Positions 8,008 through 19,646 of a stretch of DNA of 64,000 nucleotides are shown here, piece by piece. How positions within the stretch are numbered: the first letter of the stretch is position 1; each line of letters begins with the position of its first letter. The position numbers and the translations under genes were made by a program. The notes under the pieces were generated by a model that did no database searches, had not been told where the DNA came from, and was given only the letters and a program-made list of their open reading frames with translations. The stretch is from Cyclobacteriaceae bacterium (GTDB lineage: Bacteria > Bacteroidota > Bacteroidia > Cytophagales > Cyclobacteriaceae), in the NCBI GenBank assembly GCA_965278925.1, contig OZ257123.1, positions 2,880,753 to 2,944,752 of the forward strand, read 5' to 3'.

Positions 8008-10653
8008 ATGGACCATACTCCGCCCAAACTCTTTCTTCGCTTCTTCCGCTGGTACTGCCACCCGAAGTTGATCGATTATATCGAAGGCGACTTGTTAGAG
8101 GTTTATGAAAGGCGATTGGAAAAATCTGGCAAACGAAACGCAGACCTACATTTTATAAAAGACGTGCTGCTGCTCTTCCGGGCAGGAATTATCAAACCAA
8201 CAGAAGGATATAGAAATTTAAACAACTACGGTATGTTCAAAAGTTATTTTAAAATCGGATGGCGTAGTCTTCTCAAGAACAAAGGCTACTCCTACATCAA
8301 CGTTGTTGGCCTGGCCATGGGAATGGCCGTTACACTTTTAATCGGAATGTGGGTGGTTGATGAACTATCCTTTAATCGTTATCATAAAAATTATGATCGA
8401 ATTGCACAGGTGTTTCAACATCAAACCGTTTTTAATGAGGTGAAAACAAATACCGCTGTGCCCATGCCGCTGGCCATAGAATTAAAAAATAGTTACCCAC
8501 ACGATTTCAAACATGTGGTACAAATGTGGTGGGAACGCAGTCACGTTCTCACCATCGAAGAAAAAAAGATTCCGCGAAATGGAGTATTTATGGGAAAGGA
8601 AGGACTTGAAATGTTTTCATTTGAAATGGTGCAAGGTTCATGGAAAAGTCTGGATGACCCTTCTTCGATTGTTCTCTCAGAGTCTACAGCTCACATTCTT
8701 TTTGGTGATCAAGATCCTGTTAATCAAATGCTAACGATTGACAATTCCCTTGATGTGAAGGTGACCGGAGTTTTCATGGAACCTCCTTCCAATTCAAGGT
8801 TTCACGCGCTTCAATTCATCTCCAGTTGGGATTTATGGGTATCGACCAACCCGTGGATGAAAGATGATGAAAACAACTGGAACAGTGATGATATTAATTT
8901 TACAGATGTAATTACGTATGTGGAGATCGAGCCAACTACCAACTTTGAGACGGTCTCAAAAAAAATTGAGAAGGTAAAGTTTAACAAACTAACGCCCGTG
9001 CAAGCGGCACAGGAAAACCCGAAAGTATTTCTTCAGCCTATGAGCCGCTGGCATTTGTACTCGCAATGGAAAGATGCGCAAGAAAGCGGTGGGCGAATTC
9101 AATTCGTATGGCTGTTTGGGATGATCGGATTTTTTGTTTTGGTGCTTGCCTGCATCAACTTCATGAACCTGAGCACTGCCCAGTCGGAGATGCGCGCCAA
9201 AGAAGTGGGCATTCGCAAATCGATTGGCTCTGCGCGCTCTCAATTGATCAGTCAGTTTTACATTGAGACATCTTTAATTGTGTTATGCGCTTTTGTTTTT
9301 GCAATGGGTCTGGCGGGCATGGCCCTACCGTGGTTCAATCAATTGTCTGAAAAAGAAATGACTATGCCATGGACAAACCCGATCTTTCTTTTGATTGCGC
9401 TGGGTTTCATTTTTTTTACCAGTCTCCTTGCCGGTAGTTATCCCGCATTGTTTCTTTCTTCGTTTCAACCAGTAAATGTTTTGAAAGGTACGTTCCGGGT
9501 GGGTCGATTTGTAAACGTTCCGCGCAAAGTATTGGTCGTGATGCAATTTTCTGTATCTGTGGCTCTGATTATTGGCACCATCATCGTGTGGCAACAGATT
9601 CAATTCGCTAAAGACAGGCCGATAGGCTATACCCGTGAAGGGTTGATTATGGTACGGAAAACCGCGCCCGATTTTTGGAGGATAATTCGACCGTTAAAAA
9701 ATAAACTAAAAGAGTCGGATGCTATTGTTGAATTGGCCGAATCGTCAAGCCCGGCCACCGAAACGTGGTTTACATTTAACAACTTCAACTGGCAAGGCAA
9801 AAACCCTGACGAAAAAATCGGATTTACTTGTGCAGCGATAACTGTTGACTATGGCGCTACGATGGGTTGGAATTTTATTCAAGGTCGTGATCTCTCACGC
9901 GAGTTCTCTACGGATTCCTCTGCCGTTATTCTCAATGAAACTGCTGCGCGATTAATCGGGTGGCAGAATCCAATCAACGAAGAGATTACCTGGAATGGAA
10001 GAACGTTCAGGGTGATTGGAGTAATACAAGATATGATTGTGGATTCGCCTTACGAACCCGTTAAGCCAAGTGTGTATTTCATGCAAAACAATCTTCTGTT
10101 GAATACGCTTGGCAATGTATGGATTACCATGCGATTGAATCCCAATCTAAGTCCGCATGAAGCAATTGCACGCGTGGAGAATGTTTTTAAATCAGTACTG
10201 CCAGCCGTTCCCTTTGAATTCAAATTCATTGATCAGGAATACGAAAGTAAATTTGCAGCCGAAGAACGTATCGGTAAACTCGCAACCTTGTTTGCTGTAC
10301 TTGCTATTTTAATTTCGTGTCTTGGGCTGTTTGGCCTGTCATCGTTTGTGGCACATCAACGAACAAAAGAAATCGGCATCCGCAAAGTGATGGGCGCATC
10401 TGTGTTTAATCTCTGGAAAATGTTATCAAAAGATTTTGTGATACTGGTTTCTATTTCCATCCTCATCTCTATTCCCTTCGCCTATTATGTAGTAGAAAAA
10501 TGGTTAATGGCATATACATACCGGATTGAAATAACCTGGTGGATTTTTGCCGTCTCGGCATTAGGTGCTGTAACGATAACGCTTGCCACCGTTAGCTTCC
10601 AGGCTATAAAAGCCGCACTGATGAATCCGGTGAAAAGCCTTCGCTCGGAATAG
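8008..10653 (+). CDS. ABC permease (MacB/FtsX) with type-A prefix module
   Basis: 881 aa. PPKLFLRFFRWYCHPKLIDYIEGDLLEVYE prefix, internal MFKSYFKIGWR at 8233, FtsX motifs. Confidence 0.93.
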   Translation: MDHTPPKLFLRFFRWYCHPKLIDYIEGDLLEVYERRLEKSGKRNADLHFIKDVLLLFRAGIIKPTEGYRNLNNYGMFKSYFKIGWRSLLKNKGYSYINVVGLAMGMAVTLLIGMWVVDELSFNRYHKNYDRIAQVFQHQTVFNEVKTNTAVPMPLAIELKNSYPHDFKHVVQMWWERSHVLTIEEKKIPRNGVFMGKEGLEMFSFEMVQGSWKSLDDPSSIVLSESTAHILFGDQDPVNQMLTIDNSLDVKVTGVFMEPPSNSRFHALQFISSWDLWVSTNPWMKDDENNWNSDDINFTDVITYVEIEPTTNFETVSKKIEKVKFNKLTPVQAAQENPKVFLQPMSRWHLYSQWKDAQESGGRIQFVWLFGMIGFFVLVLACINFMNLSTAQSEMRAKEVGIRKSIGSARSQLISQFYIETSLIVLCAFVFAMGLAGMALPWFNQLSEKEMTMPWTNPIFLLIALGFIFFTSLLAGSYPALFLSSFQPVNVLKGTFRVGRFVNVPRKVLVVMQFSVSVALIIGTIIVWQQIQFAKDRPIGYTREGLIMVRKTAPDFWRIIRPLKNKLKESDAIVELAESSSPATETWFTFNNFNWQGKNPDEKIGFTCAAITVDYGATMGWNFIQGRDLSREFSTDSSAVILNETAARLIGWQNPINEEITWNGRTFRVIGVIQDMIVDSPYEPVKPSVYFMQNNLLLNTLGNVWITMRLNPNLSPHEAIARVENVFKSVLPAVPFEFKFIDQEYESKFAAEERIGKLATLFAVLAILISCLGLFGLSSFVAHQRTKEIGIRKVMGASVFNLWKMLSKDFVILVSISILISIPFAYYVVEKWLMAYTYRIEITWWIFAVSALGAVTITLATVSFQAIKAALMNPVKSLRSE

Positions 10654-10658
10654 TTGAG

Positions 10659-10697
10659 CAGATCACAGTCAAACTGTCGACAGTCGGCTGTGGTCTG
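10659..10697. repeat. Stem-loop with nested 12-bp palindrome
   Basis: CAGATCACAGTC (10659-10670) pairs with GGCTGTGGTCTG (10686-10697) using two G-U pairs. The loop contains the perfect palindrome ACTGTCGACAGT (10673-10684). Confidence 0.7.
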
Positions 10698-10744
10698 AGC
10701 ACAATAACAAAGCCACCTATTTTCGGGGCTAAAATTTTGCAGGG

Positions 10745-10796
10745 TTTACTTAACAAAAGTGAAACTAATGTATTATATTCACGTTTGTTAAGTAAA
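10745..10796 (+). promoter_or_regulatory. 19-bp inverted repeat, candidate PadR operator
   Basis: TTTACTTAACAAAAGTGAA (10745-10763) versus TTCACGTTTGTTAAGTAAA (10778-10796): 18/19 complementary, 14-nt spacer, ending 7 nt before the padR2 ATG. Confidence 0.65.
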
Positions 10797-10803
10797 TATC
10801 ATT

Positions 10804-11130
10804 ATGACACAACAATCTCTTGGTGAATTTGAGGAACTCGTTTTGCTTATGGTGGCTGCCCTGCATGACGAAGCCTACGGAGTAGTTATTCTGGAAGGTC
10901 TCGAGCAAAAACTAAAAAAGAAAGTAAACATCAGTGCGGTACATGTTGCCTTAAAACGCATTGAAGACAAAGGCTTTGTAAAATCCCGCTTTGGCGGAAT
11001 TACGGAAGACCGCGGAGGCAGACGCAAAAAGTTTTATGTCATTACTGCTTTGGGAAAAAGAATGCTCGATGCTCAGTATAATTTGCGAAACAGCATCTAT
11101 AAAGAGATTCCAAAAATATCATTCGGTTAA
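10804..11130 (+). CDS. PadR-family transcriptional regulator (paralog 2)
   Basis: MTQQSLGEFEELVLL...AYG...SAVHVALKRIEDKGFV.S...RGGRRKKFYVITALG; clear paralog of 7586-7927. Confidence 0.9.
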   Translation: MTQQSLGEFEELVLLMVAALHDEAYGVVILEGLEQKLKKKVNISAVHVALKRIEDKGFVKSRFGGITEDRGGRRKKFYVITALGKRMLDAQYNLRNSIYKEIPKISFG

Positions 11131-11156
11131 TGACCAAACTTGACATATGAGAAAAG

Positions 11157-11195
11157 GTAATCAGTAAGTGGAAATCGGTCGGGTTTACTGATTAC
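11157..11195. repeat. Intergenic inverted repeat with 7-nt periodicity
   Basis: GTAATCAGTAA (11157-11167) / TTACTGATTAC (11185-11195), perfect 11 bp; the right arm continues TTACTGA TTACTAT TCACTAC. Confidence 0.7.
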
Positions 11196-11216
11196 TATTC
11201 ACTACGCCAGTTAAAA

Positions 11217-11864
11217 ATGAAAAATAATCCTCCAAAACGTCCTCTTCAATTCCTCCGCTGGTTTTGCCGTGAAGATTATCTCGAAGAGATTGAGGGAGAC
11301 TTGACAGAGGTTTTTATAAAGCAAGCAGAAATCTCTCTCCGCAAAGCGAAGTGGAAATTTGTTTGGAGTGTGATCATGTATTTCAGGCCGCAGTTTATGA
11401 TTGTCGATATACAAAACTCAACTATTATGAAATCAATACTGAGCATCAAAGAAAGTCCTTATGTACTGTTTTTGTTTACAACCATCGCATTATTGCTTAC
11501 ACTCGCATTTCGCCCCATCGCTGAAATTGATATCCAAGACATAACTATGTTCAGCTTTCCACTAAGCAGCATAGTTTGGGTATTCCCTTTCCTGCTTCTA
11601 TCCTCCTGGCTGATTTATTTAGTTACCAATAAATTTCTCTACTCGATAGCTATCACCTGGATACACGTTCTCACAACAGTTATCACTACGCTCCTCATTG
11701 TCATTGTTCTATATATAGGCATAAATCCATCACAATTTACAAGCGACCAGCACGAGTTAATTGGCATCATCATTCAAATTTTATCCTTGCTATTTGTTTT
11801 TGGTCAACTCGCTTATGTAGTAAATATTTTAATTGGAATTTTTGGCAGGGCTAAAGCTCATTGA
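11217..11864 (+). CDS. Chimeric protein: type-B permease prefix fused to a small membrane protein (about 4 TM)
   Basis: Residues 1-61 are nearly identical to the N-terminus of 11893-14481. The remainder is hydrophobic, is not FtsX-like, and has its own ATG at 11427. Confidence 0.75.
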   Translation: MKNNPPKRPLQFLRWFCREDYLEEIEGDLTEVFIKQAEISLRKAKWKFVWSVIMYFRPQFMIVDIQNSTIMKSILSIKESPYVLFLFTTIALLLTLAFRPIAEIDIQDITMFSFPLSSIVWVFPFLLLSSWLIYLVTNKFLYSIAITWIHVLTTVITTLLIVIVLYIGINPSQFTSDQHELIGIIIQILSLLFVFGQLAYVVNILIGIFGRAKAH

Positions 11865-11892: not shown

Positions 11893-14481
11893 ATGCAACC
11901 ACCCAAGCGCCCTCTTCAATTTCTTCGCTGGTTTTGCCGCGAAGATTATCTCGAAGAGATTGAGGGAGACCTGACGGAGGTTTTTATAAAACAATCTGAA
12001 ATTTCTCCGCGCAAAGCAAAATGGAAATTTGGTTGGAGTGTAATCAAATATTTCAGGCCAGAGTTTATGAAGTCGTTTAAGTATCATCCTAATGGATACG
12101 GTATGTATAAAAGTTATTTTAAAATAGGATGGCGAAATCTGCTGAAAGAAAAAGGATATTCATTTATTAACATCGGAGGGTTTTCCCTTGGTATGGCCAT
12201 TGCCATATTGATTGGGTTGTGGGTATACGATGAGTTATCTTTTAACAAACATCAGGAAAATTATAATGAAGTTGCTGTAGTACTGCAAAACAATACCGTT
12301 GATGGCAAGATTGAAACATGGTCAAGCCAGTCGTATCAACTGGGATCCGAGCTTCGAAACAATTACGGAAATCATTTCAAACATGTGGTGATGTTGTCTT
12401 TCCCTGCAAGCTCCATTCTTACACAACAGGAAAAGACCTTTAGTGTAGTTGGAAGTTTTATGGAAGCGGATGGTCCGGAATTGTTGTCTCTGCAAATGAT
12501 GCATGGTTCACGCACTGCGCTAAAAGACCCAAGTTCTCTTTTATTATCAGCCACTGTGGCTAATACGTTTTTTGGTGACGAGAATCCCGTTGGCCAGGTA
12601 GTGAAACTCGACAATGGCATTGACTTGAAAGTAACAGGTGTATACCAGGACATTCCAGACAACTCTGACTTTAAAGGTGAGTTTGGTTTTATCGCACACC
12701 TTAACATACTGGTAAATCGCGGTGGTCGATCGTTCGGGTGGAGTAACAACTGGTTGGGGGTGTACGTTCAGGTGGCCGATCACGCAGACATGCAGCAGGC
12801 TTCTCTCGCTATCAAAGATGCCAAGATTAAAAATGTGCCTGAAGGTGATAATCGATTCAAGCCTGAACTTTTTCTACATCCTATGTCGAAGTGGCATTTA
12901 TATTCTGAGTTTAAAGATGGCGTGAACACAGGTGGCCGCATTGATTTCGTATGGCTATTTGGGGCGATTGGAATTTTTGTTCTTCTGTTAGCCTGCATCA
13001 ACTTTATGAATCTGAGTACTGCGCGTTCTCAGAAACGAGCCAAGGAAGTTGGTGTTCGTAAAGTAATCGGTTCAGCACGGGGTCAACTCATGCGTCAGTT
13101 TTTCAGCGAATCGTTGTTGGTCGTTATGCTCGCATTTATCTTCTCCATTTTATTAGTTATACTTTCTCTGCCCTGGTTTAACGAAATCGCCAACAAACAA
13201 ATTAACATCAACTTGGCAAGTCTGCCTCTTTTCTTAGCCGCGGTTTCATTTATCTTTCTGATCGCACTTCTTGCGGGTAGTTATCCTGCCTTTTATCTAT
13301 CTGGGTTTACTCCAGCCAAAGTATTGAAAGGAACATTTAAGCTGGGGGGTTCTGCTTCGCTTCCGCGAAAAGTATTGGTCACGGTACAATTTACTGTTTC
13401 TATTATATTAATTGTTGGAACTATTGTAGTATACCAACAGATTCAGTTTGCAAAAAATCGCCCGTTGGGATATGACTTAAATGGCCTGATCAACATCCCC
13501 ATCCGAACACCAGAGGTAAAGAGAAGTTACAATGCGTTGCGAAATGATTTGTTGAGTAGCGGTGTGATCTCAGACGTATCAAGTTCCGAAACAACTGTTA
13601 CAAATTTATGGTGGTCCGATTGGGGATTTAAGTGGAGAGGCAAAGACCCCAACTTTCAGGATAATATTTTCCGGGGCGCTATTGATTATGACTTTGGCAA
13701 AACCGTTGGCTGGAAAATAAAAGAAGGCCGCGATTTCTCGCGGGATTTTCCGTCAGACTCCACTGCAATGATACTCAATGAAGCTGCGGTAAAGTACATG
13801 GGCTTTGAAGATCCGATTGGTGAAACCATTCGCACCTACGGAAAAGAATATACGGTGATAGGTGTGGTGGAGGATATGGTAACCCAATCGCTTTATCGGT
13901 CGAACAAACAAACTGTTTTTGTGCTTAATCCTTTTGATCAGGTCAATTTTATTGGTGTTAGAATAAGTCCGCAGGCAAGTCCTGATGAGGCCCTGACTAA
14001 ATTGAGTCAGGTTTTTCTAAAACACAACCCAAGCACACCGTTTGAATATAAATTTGCTGACGATGAGTTTGCAGAGAAATTTGCTTTCGAAAAACGTGTA
14101 GGTAGTTTGGTGACCATCTTTGCTGTGCTGGCCATTTTTATCAGTTGCCTCGGACTTTTTGGGTTATCCTCTTTTGTCGCTGAACAACGTACCAAAGAGA
14201 TTGGCATCCGCAAGGTAATGGGCGCTTCTACCTCCAGTCTCTGGCGTATGTTATCCAAAGATTTTTTACTGCTTGTGATCATCGCTTGTTTTATTGCCAT
14301 GCCCGTTGCTAATTATTTAATGCGTGGCTGGCTGAGCTCATACGATTATCGCACAGAAATTTCGTGGTGGGTATTCCTGATCACGGGTGGTAGCGTGTTA
14401 CTCGTTACTCTGTTGACGGTAAGTTATCAAACTGTAAAGGCTGCCATGATGAACCCGGTTAATAGTTTGAAAGCGGAATGA
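11893..14481 (+). CDS. ABC permease (MacB/FtsX) with type-B prefix module
   Basis: 862 aa. PPKRPLQFLRWFCREDYLEEIEGDL prefix, internal MYKSYFKIGWR at 12103, FtsX motifs. Confidence 0.93.
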   Translation: MQPPKRPLQFLRWFCREDYLEEIEGDLTEVFIKQSEISPRKAKWKFGWSVIKYFRPEFMKSFKYHPNGYGMYKSYFKIGWRNLLKEKGYSFINIGGFSLGMAIAILIGLWVYDELSFNKHQENYNEVAVVLQNNTVDGKIETWSSQSYQLGSELRNNYGNHFKHVVMLSFPASSILTQQEKTFSVVGSFMEADGPELLSLQMMHGSRTALKDPSSLLLSATVANTFFGDENPVGQVVKLDNGIDLKVTGVYQDIPDNSDFKGEFGFIAHLNILVNRGGRSFGWSNNWLGVYVQVADHADMQQASLAIKDAKIKNVPEGDNRFKPELFLHPMSKWHLYSEFKDGVNTGGRIDFVWLFGAIGIFVLLLACINFMNLSTARSQKRAKEVGVRKVIGSARGQLMRQFFSESLLVVMLAFIFSILLVILSLPWFNEIANKQININLASLPLFLAAVSFIFLIALLAGSYPAFYLSGFTPAKVLKGTFKLGGSASLPRKVLVTVQFTVSIILIVGTIVVYQQIQFAKNRPLGYDLNGLINIPIRTPEVKRSYNALRNDLLSSGVISDVSSSETTVTNLWWSDWGFKWRGKDPNFQDNIFRGAIDYDFGKTVGWKIKEGRDFSRDFPSDSTAMILNEAAVKYMGFEDPIGETIRTYGKEYTVIGVVEDMVTQSLYRSNKQTVFVLNPFDQVNFIGVRISPQASPDEALTKLSQVFLKHNPSTPFEYKFADDEFAEKFAFEKRVGSLVTIFAVLAIFISCLGLFGLSSFVAEQRTKEIGIRKVMGASTSSLWRMLSKDFLLLVIIACFIAMPVANYLMRGWLSSYDYRTEISWWVFLITGGSVLLVTLLTVSYQTVKAAMMNPVNSLKAE

Positions 14482-17159: not shown

Positions 17160-17262
17160 AACCAATCCTCCCAAACGCCCCCTCCAATTCCTCCGCTGGT
17201 TTTGCCGCGAAGATTATCTCGATGAGATTGAAGGCGATCTGTTGGAGATTTATATAAAATAA
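17156..17262 (+). pseudogene. Orphan, frameshifted and truncated type-B prefix remnant
   Basis: From 17161 the frame reads TNPPKRPLQFLRWFCREDYLDEIEGDLLEIYIK*. The ATG at 17156 (ATGA overlap with the upstream stop) is out of frame by one base, and a stop follows at 17260-17262. Confidence 0.85.
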
Positions 17263-17411: not shown

Positions 17412-19646
17412 ATGCTTCAGTCTCGATTGTTTGCCCGAATCATTTCTAAAAACCGGGAAGCCTACCTGCTAAAAGTTATTTCATTGGCGGTCGCTTTTGC
17501 CAGTTCAACCCTGATTGCATTATTTTCACTAAACGAATTTGGCTACGATCGATTTCACTCAGAATCTCAAGCCATCTTTCGCGTTCTGCAACGAAATAAT
17601 CACGAAGAATTTAGCGGCAACCGGCTTACCTCCAAAATTCCCGTTGGCGTTTACAATACTTTATCTTCCTTCCCTGATTCGCTTATTGTTGCGCGTGTAA
17701 AAGTTATGAACAGTGTAGGTGTTGTTGTCAATAAGCAACTACACCACGATCAAAAAATTCATACAGCCGACTCGTCACTGCTTTCAATATTTACATTTAA
17801 TGCTACGCAGGGGGCTTTGAAAAGTTTTGAAGGCAATAGTCCTGTTGTGATCTTATCTGAAAAGATGTCCGTTCAATATTTTGGCACCACACAAAGTGTA
17901 GGCGCTACTTTCAAACTGCATTCATTAGGCGACACACTTTACTGCAAGGTAGCGGCTGTCTTTCGCGATTTTCCTGCAAACTCGCATGAAGACTTTGGTG
18001 TGTTTTTGCGATTCGACCCGAAAAGTATTTCCACACTCAATTTTAATCCAGAAGATTTTAATCTCTATGGTCGTCTGCTGCAAGGATCGAAAACTATTTA
18101 TGCGGAAAGACTAAATAAAAATCCCGAGCTTACTTACTCATTACAACCCATTGAGTCAATCTACTTTGGTGCGCGGGTGGTTGGCGAAGAAGCACGGCAT
18201 GGTGATGAGTATAGTATCTGGATTTTGATTTGCATCACCGGCTTAATTCTTTTTTTAGCTCTCACCAGTTTTGTCAATCTCACCACCCTTACATTACCCC
18301 ATCGGTCAAAAGAGCTGGCCATAAAAAAATTTTCCGGCACCAGTAAAGGTGTGATTATGCTCGGTTTCGCCAAAGAGTCGTTTGCGTTAGTGGGTATTTC
18401 CTTTGCCCTCGGTCTTGTTATTCTGCTTAGTGCAAATACATTTATTGAGCCCATACTTTTAATTGATACGGGCAAACTTTTGCTTTCGGCTGATCAATCG
18501 CTGATTATGATTGCTTTGCTCTTGATAATCATTGGGGGAGTTGCTCCCTTGTTTATGGCTAATAAATTTGCCGGTGCCACCCCCACACGATTGCTGAGAA
18601 CAGAGACGATTACATTTCCAAAATTCAAGCGGGTTATCGCATTCATGCAGCTTGGCATTAGCATCTTTTTAATTGTGGCATCCCTTGTTATAAGGCGCCA
18701 GGTAAATCACTCCTTAGTAAAAGAACCAGGGCGCAATCATTATCAAGTTGTCTATTTAAACTATCCCGCAGACTATACGAATGAAGGGCTTTGGGATTTA
18801 CGAGCACACTGGAAAAGAAACAATCCTAACATTCAGGATGTAATGGCGACTTCACAACTCCCTAACCGTATTCAAAGTAAAGAGCTTGACTCTGATCTCT
18901 ATTTCATAACAGTCGATCGGGGCTTTCTTGATTTTTTTGATTTGAAAACAACGCAGGGAAGATGGTTTCAGGCCAACGATGAGGCTCCTCTGGCGGTTGT
19001 AAACAAAGCGGCACAATTAAAACCTAATAACGAAATCATTGGCGTAGTCGAAAATATGAGTGAGCAATTTAATCAGACCCAAAAACCAATTAAGTATCTG
19101 GTCAATAATCAGGTGAACTACAATTTCTTGTGTGTACGAATCCTGGAAGTAAATATCCGCAGAACAGTAACCTATCTCTCAACCTTTTTTACCTCACCCG
19201 CTGATCCGTTAAAGATAACATTCATGGATACTCATTTTGAAGAATGGCTTCATTATCAGGATCGGCTGAATAAACTCTCAGAAATGCTGGCTATCATTTC
19301 AGGTGTTTTGTCATGCTTCGCTATCTATGGGTTGAGCATAAGTTTAGTGCGCGATAAGCTAAAACAGATTGCCATTCACAAACTCTATGGCGCAAGCATC
19401 GTGCGGATAACAAGACTGCTGGCACGTGAATTTGCATTGCAGATGGGGCTGGCCATTTTAATCTTTGGCCCTTTCACCTATATTTTTCTCAAAGAATTTT
19501 TACGTAATTTTGTTTACACAACTCTTTTTCAATGGACCGATTCCATCTATCCACTTTCCTATTGTATACTGGTTATACTGGCGCTCTGTGGCTTTCAGGC
19601 ATACTGTCTTAACCGAGCAGACTTAACGGGAGCGTTGAAGGGATAA
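17412..19646 (+). CDS. Divergent MacB/FtsX-type ABC permease without prefix
   Basis: 744 aa. Degenerate motifs SFVNLTTL..HRSKELAIKKFSG and SCFAIYGLS...KLKQIAIHKLYGAS; same TM layout as the paralogs. Confidence 0.85.
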   Translation: MLQSRLFARIISKNREAYLLKVISLAVAFASSTLIALFSLNEFGYDRFHSESQAIFRVLQRNNHEEFSGNRLTSKIPVGVYNTLSSFPDSLIVARVKVMNSVGVVVNKQLHHDQKIHTADSSLLSIFTFNATQGALKSFEGNSPVVILSEKMSVQYFGTTQSVGATFKLHSLGDTLYCKVAAVFRDFPANSHEDFGVFLRFDPKSISTLNFNPEDFNLYGRLLQGSKTIYAERLNKNPELTYSLQPIESIYFGARVVGEEARHGDEYSIWILICITGLILFLALTSFVNLTTLTLPHRSKELAIKKFSGTSKGVIMLGFAKESFALVGISFALGLVILLSANTFIEPILLIDTGKLLLSADQSLIMIALLLIIIGGVAPLFMANKFAGATPTRLLRTETITFPKFKRVIAFMQLGISIFLIVASLVIRRQVNHSLVKEPGRNHYQVVYLNYPADYTNEGLWDLRAHWKRNNPNIQDVMATSQLPNRIQSKELDSDLYFITVDRGFLDFFDLKTTQGRWFQANDEAPLAVVNKAAQLKPNNEIIGVVENMSEQFNQTQKPIKYLVNNQVNYNFLCVRILEVNIRRTVTYLSTFFTSPADPLKITFMDTHFEEWLHYQDRLNKLSEMLAIISGVLSCFAIYGLSISLVRDKLKQIAIHKLYGASIVRITRLLAREFALQMGLAILIFGPFTYIFLKEFLRNFVYTTLFQWTDSIYPLSYCILVILALCGFQAYCLNRADLTGALKG

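Follow-up and report, generated by a model that had tools for sequence, protein, structure and literature searches.

A 215-residue protein encoded in a Cyclobacteriaceae genome joins a small permease-prefix domain, in frame, to a membrane-protein body of a different family. Profile comparisons identify this body as a degenerate relative of helices IX-XII of cytochrome oxidase subunit I, which is the new element reported here. The fusion is best read as a single two-module membrane protein and a putative partner or sensor of PadR2, the PadR-family regulator encoded next to it, by analogy with the HAAS-PadR dyad; a probability of about 0.65 is assigned to this reading. The gene lies in a Cyclobacteriaceae bacterium (assembly GCA_965278925.1, contig OZ257123.1, positions 2,880,753-2,944,752 of the forward strand). 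This whole stretch of 64,000 nt is called the window below, and coordinates refer to it unless a locus or contig is named. The genes concerned and the parts of the fusion are as follows:

10804-11130, + strand: padR2, first gene of the operon, encoding a PadR-family winged-helix regulator of 108 aa (PF03551, 33 bits)
11217-11864, + strand: fusion gene (215 aa: prefix, linker and four-TM body), frame open throughout
11229-11399, + strand: permease-prefix-2 domain of subtype B, residues 5-61 (NF038404, 54.5 bits), predicted to form a three-helix bundle in the cytoplasm
11400-11426, + strand: linker, residues 62-70 (IVDIQNSTI), which probably originated as the 5' leader of a stand-alone gene
11427-11861, + strand: four-TM body, residues 71-215 (145 aa), a degenerate relative of COX1 helices IX-XII, predicted N-in, C-in
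11893-14481, + strand: next operon gene, an ADOP/MacB-FtsX duplicated permease with a subtype-B prefix (NF038404 55 bits, MacB_PCD, FtsX)

The fusion gene and its junction

According to the initial annotation, an autonomous prefix had been joined in frame to a small membrane protein unrelated to FtsX, and this is confirmed down to the nucleotide: the likeness to the prefix DNA of the next gene (11893) stops at 11400 with CAGTTTATGA (11391-11400), which is followed by a stretch of 26 nt (11401-11426) and an ATG at 11427. The two prefixes are 85% identical over 177 nt and differ in 15 synonymous and 7 non-synonymous codons; past 11400, the identity is 26-34% in every register, i.e., at random level. 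At the protein level, the N-terminus of the fusion matches NF038404 (perm_prefix_2) with 54.5 bits against a cut-off of 35 (E = 1e-14), as do the flanking ADOP/MacB-FtsX permeases (8008, 11893 and 14526) at their own N-termini, all three being typical NF038404 transporters. Beyond the prefix, the open reading frame has no match in Pfam or NCBIfam, FtsX and MacB_PCD included. These two domains score 97-117 bits in the neighboring genes and give no score for the fusion, so that the full architecture of NF038404 transporters (prefix plus MacB_PCD/FtsX body) is absent from it.

The AlphaFold2 model of the fusion (53 sequences, pLDDT 90) comprises three helices (residues 7-16, 19-37, and 41-54), a low-confidence linker (55-70) and four long TM helices, which agrees with the earlier proposal of a four-TM protein starting at ATG 11427. 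The N-terminus, loop 2 and the C-terminus together carry five Lys/Arg residues, while the other side carries one; because of this charge distribution, an N-in, C-in topology is predicted, which is compatible with a cytoplasmic N-terminal head.

The junction is not peculiar to the window. As a check proposed in the initial annotation, recurrence in related genomes was examined, and the sequence RPQF-x-N-[IV]-D-I-Q-N-S-T-I-M-K-S-I-L was found to be common to at least 11 fusion orthologs that are 67-86% identical (ten further full-length proteins), one of them from a Cyclobacteriaceae MAG. The assemblies carrying it come independently from JGI, ENA, Logan, and NCBI, so that an assembly chimera at 11400 is ruled out in practice. 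In the four orthologs for which DNA is available, dN/dS amounts to 0.08-0.20 for the prefix and to 0.10-0.21 for the body. Given the conserved junction and the low dN/dS in both parts, the fusion behaves as a real, translated and selected protein, neither a chimera nor a dead remnant.

The junction had also been taken for a snapshot of recombination in progress. This view holds for the interior of the prefix, where recombination is visible in the window copy (see below), and fails for the fusion event itself, which is not recent: dS is approximately 0.9 between the fusion prefix and the adjacent 11893 prefix and 0.5-1.4 between fusion orthologs. Judging from these distances, the fusion is old and has been kept, both halves under purifying selection, within a small Bacteroidota clade. 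Neither is the joined architecture shared by all homologs, as stand-alone relatives lack the N-terminal prefix; the result thus lies between the fresh recombinant and the ancient architecture that had been envisaged. Recent gene conversion from the 11893 prefix was considered and rejected because the dS of 0.9 is no lower than that against orthologs.

A search for same-genus synteny or an empty site returned no DNA match, and a scan of 300 genomes of the order, four of them from the same genus, gave no homolog of the body. Among 135 prefix-2 matches in 61 genomes of the order, only two are followed by genuine non-permease bodies, both in this genome. A 242-aa prefix frame in genome G193, which had been a candidate for a further architecture, turned out to be a permease with a frameshift. 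When fusion orthologs are compared, the conservation of synonymous sites peaks at 11247-11291 (codons 11-25, prefix core) and at 11412-11471 (codons 66-85); the second peak, around the internal ATG, would fit a retained internal start.

Ancestry of the four-helix body

Body homologs without the prefix, which the initial annotation had advised looking for, do exist in numerous Bacteroidota as stand-alone genes that lie away from PadR. About 20 of them (135-155 aa) were found in the first search, starting exactly at the internal Met of the fusion, and an exhaustive profile search extended the family to 526 clusters at 50% identity, most of which are stand-alone and begin at the same Met. In eight stand-alone loci (from Saprospirales, Cyclobacteriaceae, Parafilimonas, Runella, Draconibacterium, and metagenome contigs), the upstream DNA is non-coding and contains in-frame stops; no prefix remnant was detected there (best HMM E = 0.06), and none of the eight has a PadR neighbor. 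In the body tree, the 11 fusions cluster together within the stand-alone sequences, and the sister of this group is the stand-alone protein P0012. A long-branch stand-alone sequence, P0017, falls inside the fusion group, and fusion monophyly is not rejected by the AU test (p = 0.158). No prefix remnant lies upstream of P0017, for which loss of the prefix and a tree artefact are indistinguishable.

The ancestry of the family can be traced through its distant four-TM members (set A8), which retain a DIHLHDTYFV motif at the outer end of TM2 and a GMPRRY-DY motif in the TM3-TM4 loop. Searched against the PDB, the A8 profile retrieves subunit 1 of cytochrome c oxidase only (29 distinct chains, best E = 2.1e-6) and aligns to subunit I residues ~355-490, corresponding to helices IX-XII. 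Pfam COX1 (PF00115) is matched by 10 of the 43 A8 members (best E = 5e-8), and no other family recurs. The subfamily of the fusion itself (A6) aligns with A8 at 99.9% probability in hhalign (E = 1.5e-34). The A6 profile alone has no COX1 match, and the link of the fusion subfamily to COX1 is thus transitive, via A8.

Compared with heme-copper oxidase subunit I (PF00115), the wider family keeps both motifs in matching places and shares the N-in, C-in topology; unlike subunit I, it has four helices rather than twelve and no copper/heme ligand set (six His). In the fusion subfamily, both the HDTY...H.H and the GMPRRY motifs are replaced (QDITMF... and INPSQF..., respectively). Owing to the loss of the heme-ligand motif and of GMPRRY, the body cannot be an oxidase and is instead classified, from these sequence comparisons, as a non-catalytic protein derived from the four C-terminal helices of oxidase subunit I. 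Three polar residues are invariant inside its TM helices (His150, Gln197, and Asn203), which suggests a specific function. A Foldseek search with the full fusion model yielded no PDB relative, only non-significant MAPEG-type four-helix bundles.

A sizeable uncharacterized family of stand-alone relatives of helices IX-XII is thereby uncovered (the 526 clusters). It also takes part in other fusions, such as P0222 (387 aa, metagenome), an oxidase-like four-TM member with a C-terminal DUF4253.

The segment that connects prefix and body had been proposed to derive from an AT-rich 5' leader. In the AlphaFold2 model, pLDDT drops below 50 at residues 62-65, and dN/dS over ten linker codons is 0.2-1.2 (four orthologs with DNA), indicating relaxed constraint. 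The leader of the closest stand-alone gene (L026) reads TAG-GAT-TTA-CAA-AAA-ATA-AAC-GTT-ATG, the window linker GTC-GAT-ATA-CAA-AAC-TCA-ACT-ATT-ATG; the two agree in 14 of 21 bases, with a GAT-TACAAAA core, and the fusions have GTC where L026 has TAG. This comparison, a single one over about 21 AT-rich bases, makes a former leader read through in frame plausible and is only suggestive of it. The fusion arose when the prefix became linked in frame to the start Met of the body, by way of a segment that resembles a 5' leader of the body gene. In a search for an internal promoter, a sigma-70-like match at 11401-11428 was uninformative for Bacteroidota, and no TAnnTTTG motif was found on the + strand of 10650-11450.

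The same body family also carries prefixes of a second subtype (C). Six proteins (P0101, P0109, P0117, P0118, P0132, and P0133) share a linker of the form ...KPNLIFNL-xxxx-M... that leads to the same Met; five of them exceed the cut-off of NF038404, while P0118, with 35.3 bits, is a marginal case. On one metagenome contig, a subtype-C fusion lies 4 nt behind a PadR gene. In the prefix tree, the two sets of fusion prefixes occupy separate well-supported clades, subtype C grouping with the head of an unrelated multi-TM protein of this genome (locus L005, a 362-aa frame directly behind a PadR gene), and a single clade of all fusion prefixes is rejected by the AU test (p = 0.0003). Because prefixes of both subtypes lead into the body at one and the same Met and a single prefix clade is rejected, the body family was either tagged twice or re-tagged. 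Within subtype B, the 60 residues of the prefix are too few for the tree to resolve the origin of the graft.

The prefix domain and its proposed PadR partner

HAAS-PadR dyads combine a three-helix head on multi-TM proteins with a PadR-like wHTH regulator (Ravi et al., mSystems 2024; PMC11237479). HAAS heads sit on FtsX/MacB_PCD and on 'uncharacterized 6TM, 4TM and 2TM domains', their genes always adjoin a PadR-like wHTH gene, and the head was proposed to relay a membrane signal to PadR (PMC11237479). The fusion resembles this design in carrying a small N-terminal three-helix head (here a predicted structure) on a multi-TM protein and in having a stand-alone PadR in its neighborhood, with padR2 ending 86 nt upstream. 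It differs in several respects. The head is an NF038404 perm_prefix_2 domain that escapes the HAAS models and has a conserved [F/L]-[R/K]-P at its end instead of the G-x-P of HAAS (helix 3 kink), and the body belongs to a specific oxidase-derived family that PMC11237479 does not name. The fusion prefix has no Pfam match to the HAAS superfamily (PF22564, PF08006, DUF1129, and DUF1048) at E values up to 10, and genome scans found neither PF22564 HAAS nor PF08006 HAAS_TM in this genome. In hhalign, the prefix and HAAS align with 0.8% probability, a weak negative given the small set of eight Bacteroidota HAAS domains; Foldseek with the prefix-only model found no PDB relative. These searches lend no support to HAAS membership by sequence; the head is therefore filed as NF038404 and is HAAS-like by architecture and context.

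Within its own family, the fusion prefix clusters with the prefixes of 11893, 14526 and PadR2-linked permeases elsewhere (subtype B). The fusion shares its prefix domain and its PadR neighborhood with the NF038404 transporters, which go together with the ADOP duplicated orphan permeases (TIGR03434) and PadR (TIGR03433); unlike those transporters, its body is not a transporter and lacks FtsX/MacB_PCD.

A PadR gene is present in the same operon in 7/7 fusion loci having upstream sequence, and it directly adjoins the fusion in the window, L055, L027, and L052. Each fusion locus with upstream sequence is headed by a PadR2 ortholog; these are 81-93% identical to the window PadR2 (up to 95% in a local alignment) and 92-98% identical among five permease-bearing loci. 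PadR2 shares about 45% identity with the second PadR type of the array. The genome has 13 PadR genes, and all 19 prefix-2 matches fall into ten clusters, each of them headed by a PadR gene (10 of the 13). Across 14 PadR/first-permease pairs, the more similar two PadR proteins are, the more similar are the prefixes beside them (Mantel r = 0.86, p = 2e-4), and PadR identity does not predict that of the permease body (r = 0.25). In the PadR2 group, the prefixes are 66-89% identical and the permease bodies only 31-38%; the first ~90 residues of its permeases are 80-93% identical, and a sharp drop occurs at TM1. Prefix type, as judged from these identities, tracks PadR type rather than the permease body. 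A further head type may occur in the same genome: in L030 (C1:3200044-3200551), behind the PadR gene with the highest score in the genome, lies a frame of 903 aa that is weakly similar to permease prefix domain 1 at its N-terminus (E = 0.015).

Two inverted repeats flank padR2:

10745-10796, strand not assigned: inverted repeat with arms 10745-10769 and 10772-10796 (25 nt), 88% complementary; likely PadR2 operator
11156-11196, + strand: 12-bp stem-loop in the spacer between padR2 and the fusion, present in the MFE and centroid folds, with a z-score of only -1.2

The first lies directly upstream of padR2, overlapping the promoter region. In six PadR2-ortholog loci from different metagenomes, it is kept almost base for base and nothing else upstream is conserved; it is likely the PadR2 operator. 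The spacer after padR2 always contains a long inverted repeat, the sequence of which differs by lineage (L023:3293-3397, L041:1249-1347, L055:3001-3087); it may act as an attenuator or processing site.

Taken as a partner of PadR2, the fusion would work as follows. The subtype-B prefix head always travels with a PadR2-type repressor encoded directly upstream, which would repress its own operon at the 10745-10796 palindrome. In line with the proposal for HAAS-PadR dyads, PadR2 would be held at the membrane by binding to the prefix heads of the membrane proteins of the operon, and a signal sensed by the body would alter this binding and hence operon transcription. The fusion could in this way add a small extra input to PadR2 beside the large orphan permeases. 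The earlier suggestion of a dedicated anti-PadR sensor fits the gene contexts and is plausible, its general form being the published HAAS-PadR hypothesis (PMC11237479); the fusion is a rare new example of a signaling design already proposed from genome comparisons. Related logic is found in BlaR1/BlaI and in anti-sigma factors, membrane sensors holding a winged-helix repressor or an ECF sigma factor: there, as proposed here, a small cytoplasmic domain of a membrane protein controls a DNA-binding protein that is autoregulated and encoded next to it. Unlike them, the fusion has no protease and no zinc-binding anti-sigma domain.

The combination of PadR with a prefixed membrane protein is very common in soil and water bacteria, and the usual partners of PadR are duplicated permeases of 880 aa, which are hard to handle; to our knowledge, the design has never been tested at the bench. 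The 215-aa fusion, and above all the two-gene PadR-fusion units L027 and L052, constitute a minimal version of the system: a single repressor, a single conserved candidate operator, and a single small membrane partner whose head, linker, and body can be taken apart. Being small and cleanly separable, this version makes the hypothesis of PadR-prefix binding directly testable.

Several other explanations have to be weighed against a two-module partner of PadR2. The prefix could be the dead remnant of a permease, with an accidentally open frame, and the real protein could be the 145-aa body translated from ATG 11427, the 26 nt serving as its leader. Of 17 fusions of both types, 16 retain the Met of the former start, which is where the stand-alone homologs begin, and the synonymous sites around it are unusually conserved (five of 7-8 invariant codons are identical, compared with 0-3 elsewhere). 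The prefix, however, has a dN/dS in the fusion clade as low as that of the body, the frame is open in 17/17 representatives, the sole linker indel is in frame, and the second prefix subtype shows the same architecture; in L027, moreover, the ATG of the fusion and the stop of padR overlap, an arrangement typically seen with translated partners. We regard two separate products as very unlikely. The prefix could instead be functional in another capacity (oligomerization, docking of an ATPase or membrane targeting), PadR merely regulating the operon. The lack of any sequence or fold link to HAAS in Pfam, hhalign, and Foldseek speaks for this view, which is nevertheless unlikely: the prefix subtype follows the PadR subtype across non-orthologous bodies, the prefix occurs on three or more unrelated bodies that share only the PadR neighbor, and minimal units of PadR and fusion exist without a downstream permease.

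A third possibility concerns the body, which might sense nothing and simply anchor an extra copy of the prefix, a decoy or tether titrating PadR2 and setting the threshold of the circuit. Its small size and short outside loops, the missing motifs of the oxidase ancestor, and the variable operon position of the fusion would all be in keeping with such a role. Purifying selection on the body is nonetheless as strong as on the prefix, the invariant polar residues of the TM helices (His150, Gln197, and Asn203) are kept, and recruitment of the same body family by two prefix subtypes suggests that the body matters; a mere tether is accordingly highly improbable. A more elaborate scenario, unlikely as a whole, has the oxidase-derived body sensing the state of the respiratory chain or docking onto it (at the terminal oxidase or the quinone or heme pool) and reporting to PadR2 via the head, so that ATPase-less MacB-type permeases would be switched by respiratory or envelope status. 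The retained Met and leader might, in addition, supply a head-less competitor for ratio control, and the prefix DNA might act as a recombination socket by which N-in membrane proteins are plugged into PadR circuits. Of all these, the two-module partner of PadR2 remains the preferred reading.

Recombination and other prefix-bearing proteins

The prefix had been described as an autonomous tag, and its distribution bears this out: besides permeases, a one-TM family and a further multi-TM protein of this genome carry it, as does, with two subtypes, the four-TM family. The gene order around the fusion varies, being PadR-fusion-permease in the window and L055, PadR-permease-fusion-permease in L023, L041, and L054, and PadR-fusion alone in L027.

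Recombination was examined with informative sites among four sequences: the window fusion and the permease next to it and, from L023, the fusion and the first permease. In its leader and nt 1-60, the window fusion is 83% and 93% identical to the first L023 permease versus 28% and 77% to the L023 fusion; over nt 136-200, the values are 92% and 88% for the L023 fusion versus 83% and 29% for the first L023 permease. The informative sites place the change in the following interval:

11349-11376, + strand: recombination breakpoint interval in the prefix coding sequence; 11/11 'positional' sites located at or before ORF nt 132, 10/11 'body' sites located at or after nt 161 (Fisher p = 3.4e-5)

Judged by this shift, the window copy has itself recombined, with the breakpoint lying within the prefix. 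Its leader and first ~45 codons stem from the slot directly behind padR2, and the remainder from the ancestral fusion; the coding DNA of the prefix thus acts as a site of homologous recombination. The simplest explanation would be a crossover between two direct prefix repeats that deleted the intervening permease body. The locus records how such circuits gain inputs, namely by probable read-through of a 5' leader and by homologous recombination within the DNA of the head.

Several minor observations concern the prefix copies of this and other genomes. In the prefix core (nt 61-135; 11217-11400, 11893-12070, and L023/L054), identity within a genome is 87-92%, compared with 81% for orthologs between genomes; five informative sites that group by genome hint at gene conversion among the prefix copies of the operon. 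At 17167-17262 lies a broken prefix copy (32/62 model positions, one TAA), followed by a 744-aa permease (17412-19646) that has no prefix and is only ~22% identical to its neighbors; together, the two look like a recombination footprint at the end of the array. Prefix-only frames occur at the ends of permease arrays in L007 (C1:3335472-3335693, 74 aa) and L016 (C1:2548862-2549038, 59 aa) and may be recombination remnants or free prefix peptides. In L005:670-1755 (C1:905687-906986, minus strand), a PadR gene is followed by the 362-aa frame with a subtype-C prefix, which has about five TM helices and a C-terminal domain of ~100 aa with no Pfam match and represents the second non-permease architecture of the genome. 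A third body type is carried by the subtype-B prefix in four metagenome proteins of 202-208 aa (P0042, P0038, P0051, and P0076): it consists of one TM helix and an outside domain of ~110 aa (...VKQGGL.DIVFSL...IQITEL.L..EVIFSEF) with no Pfam match.
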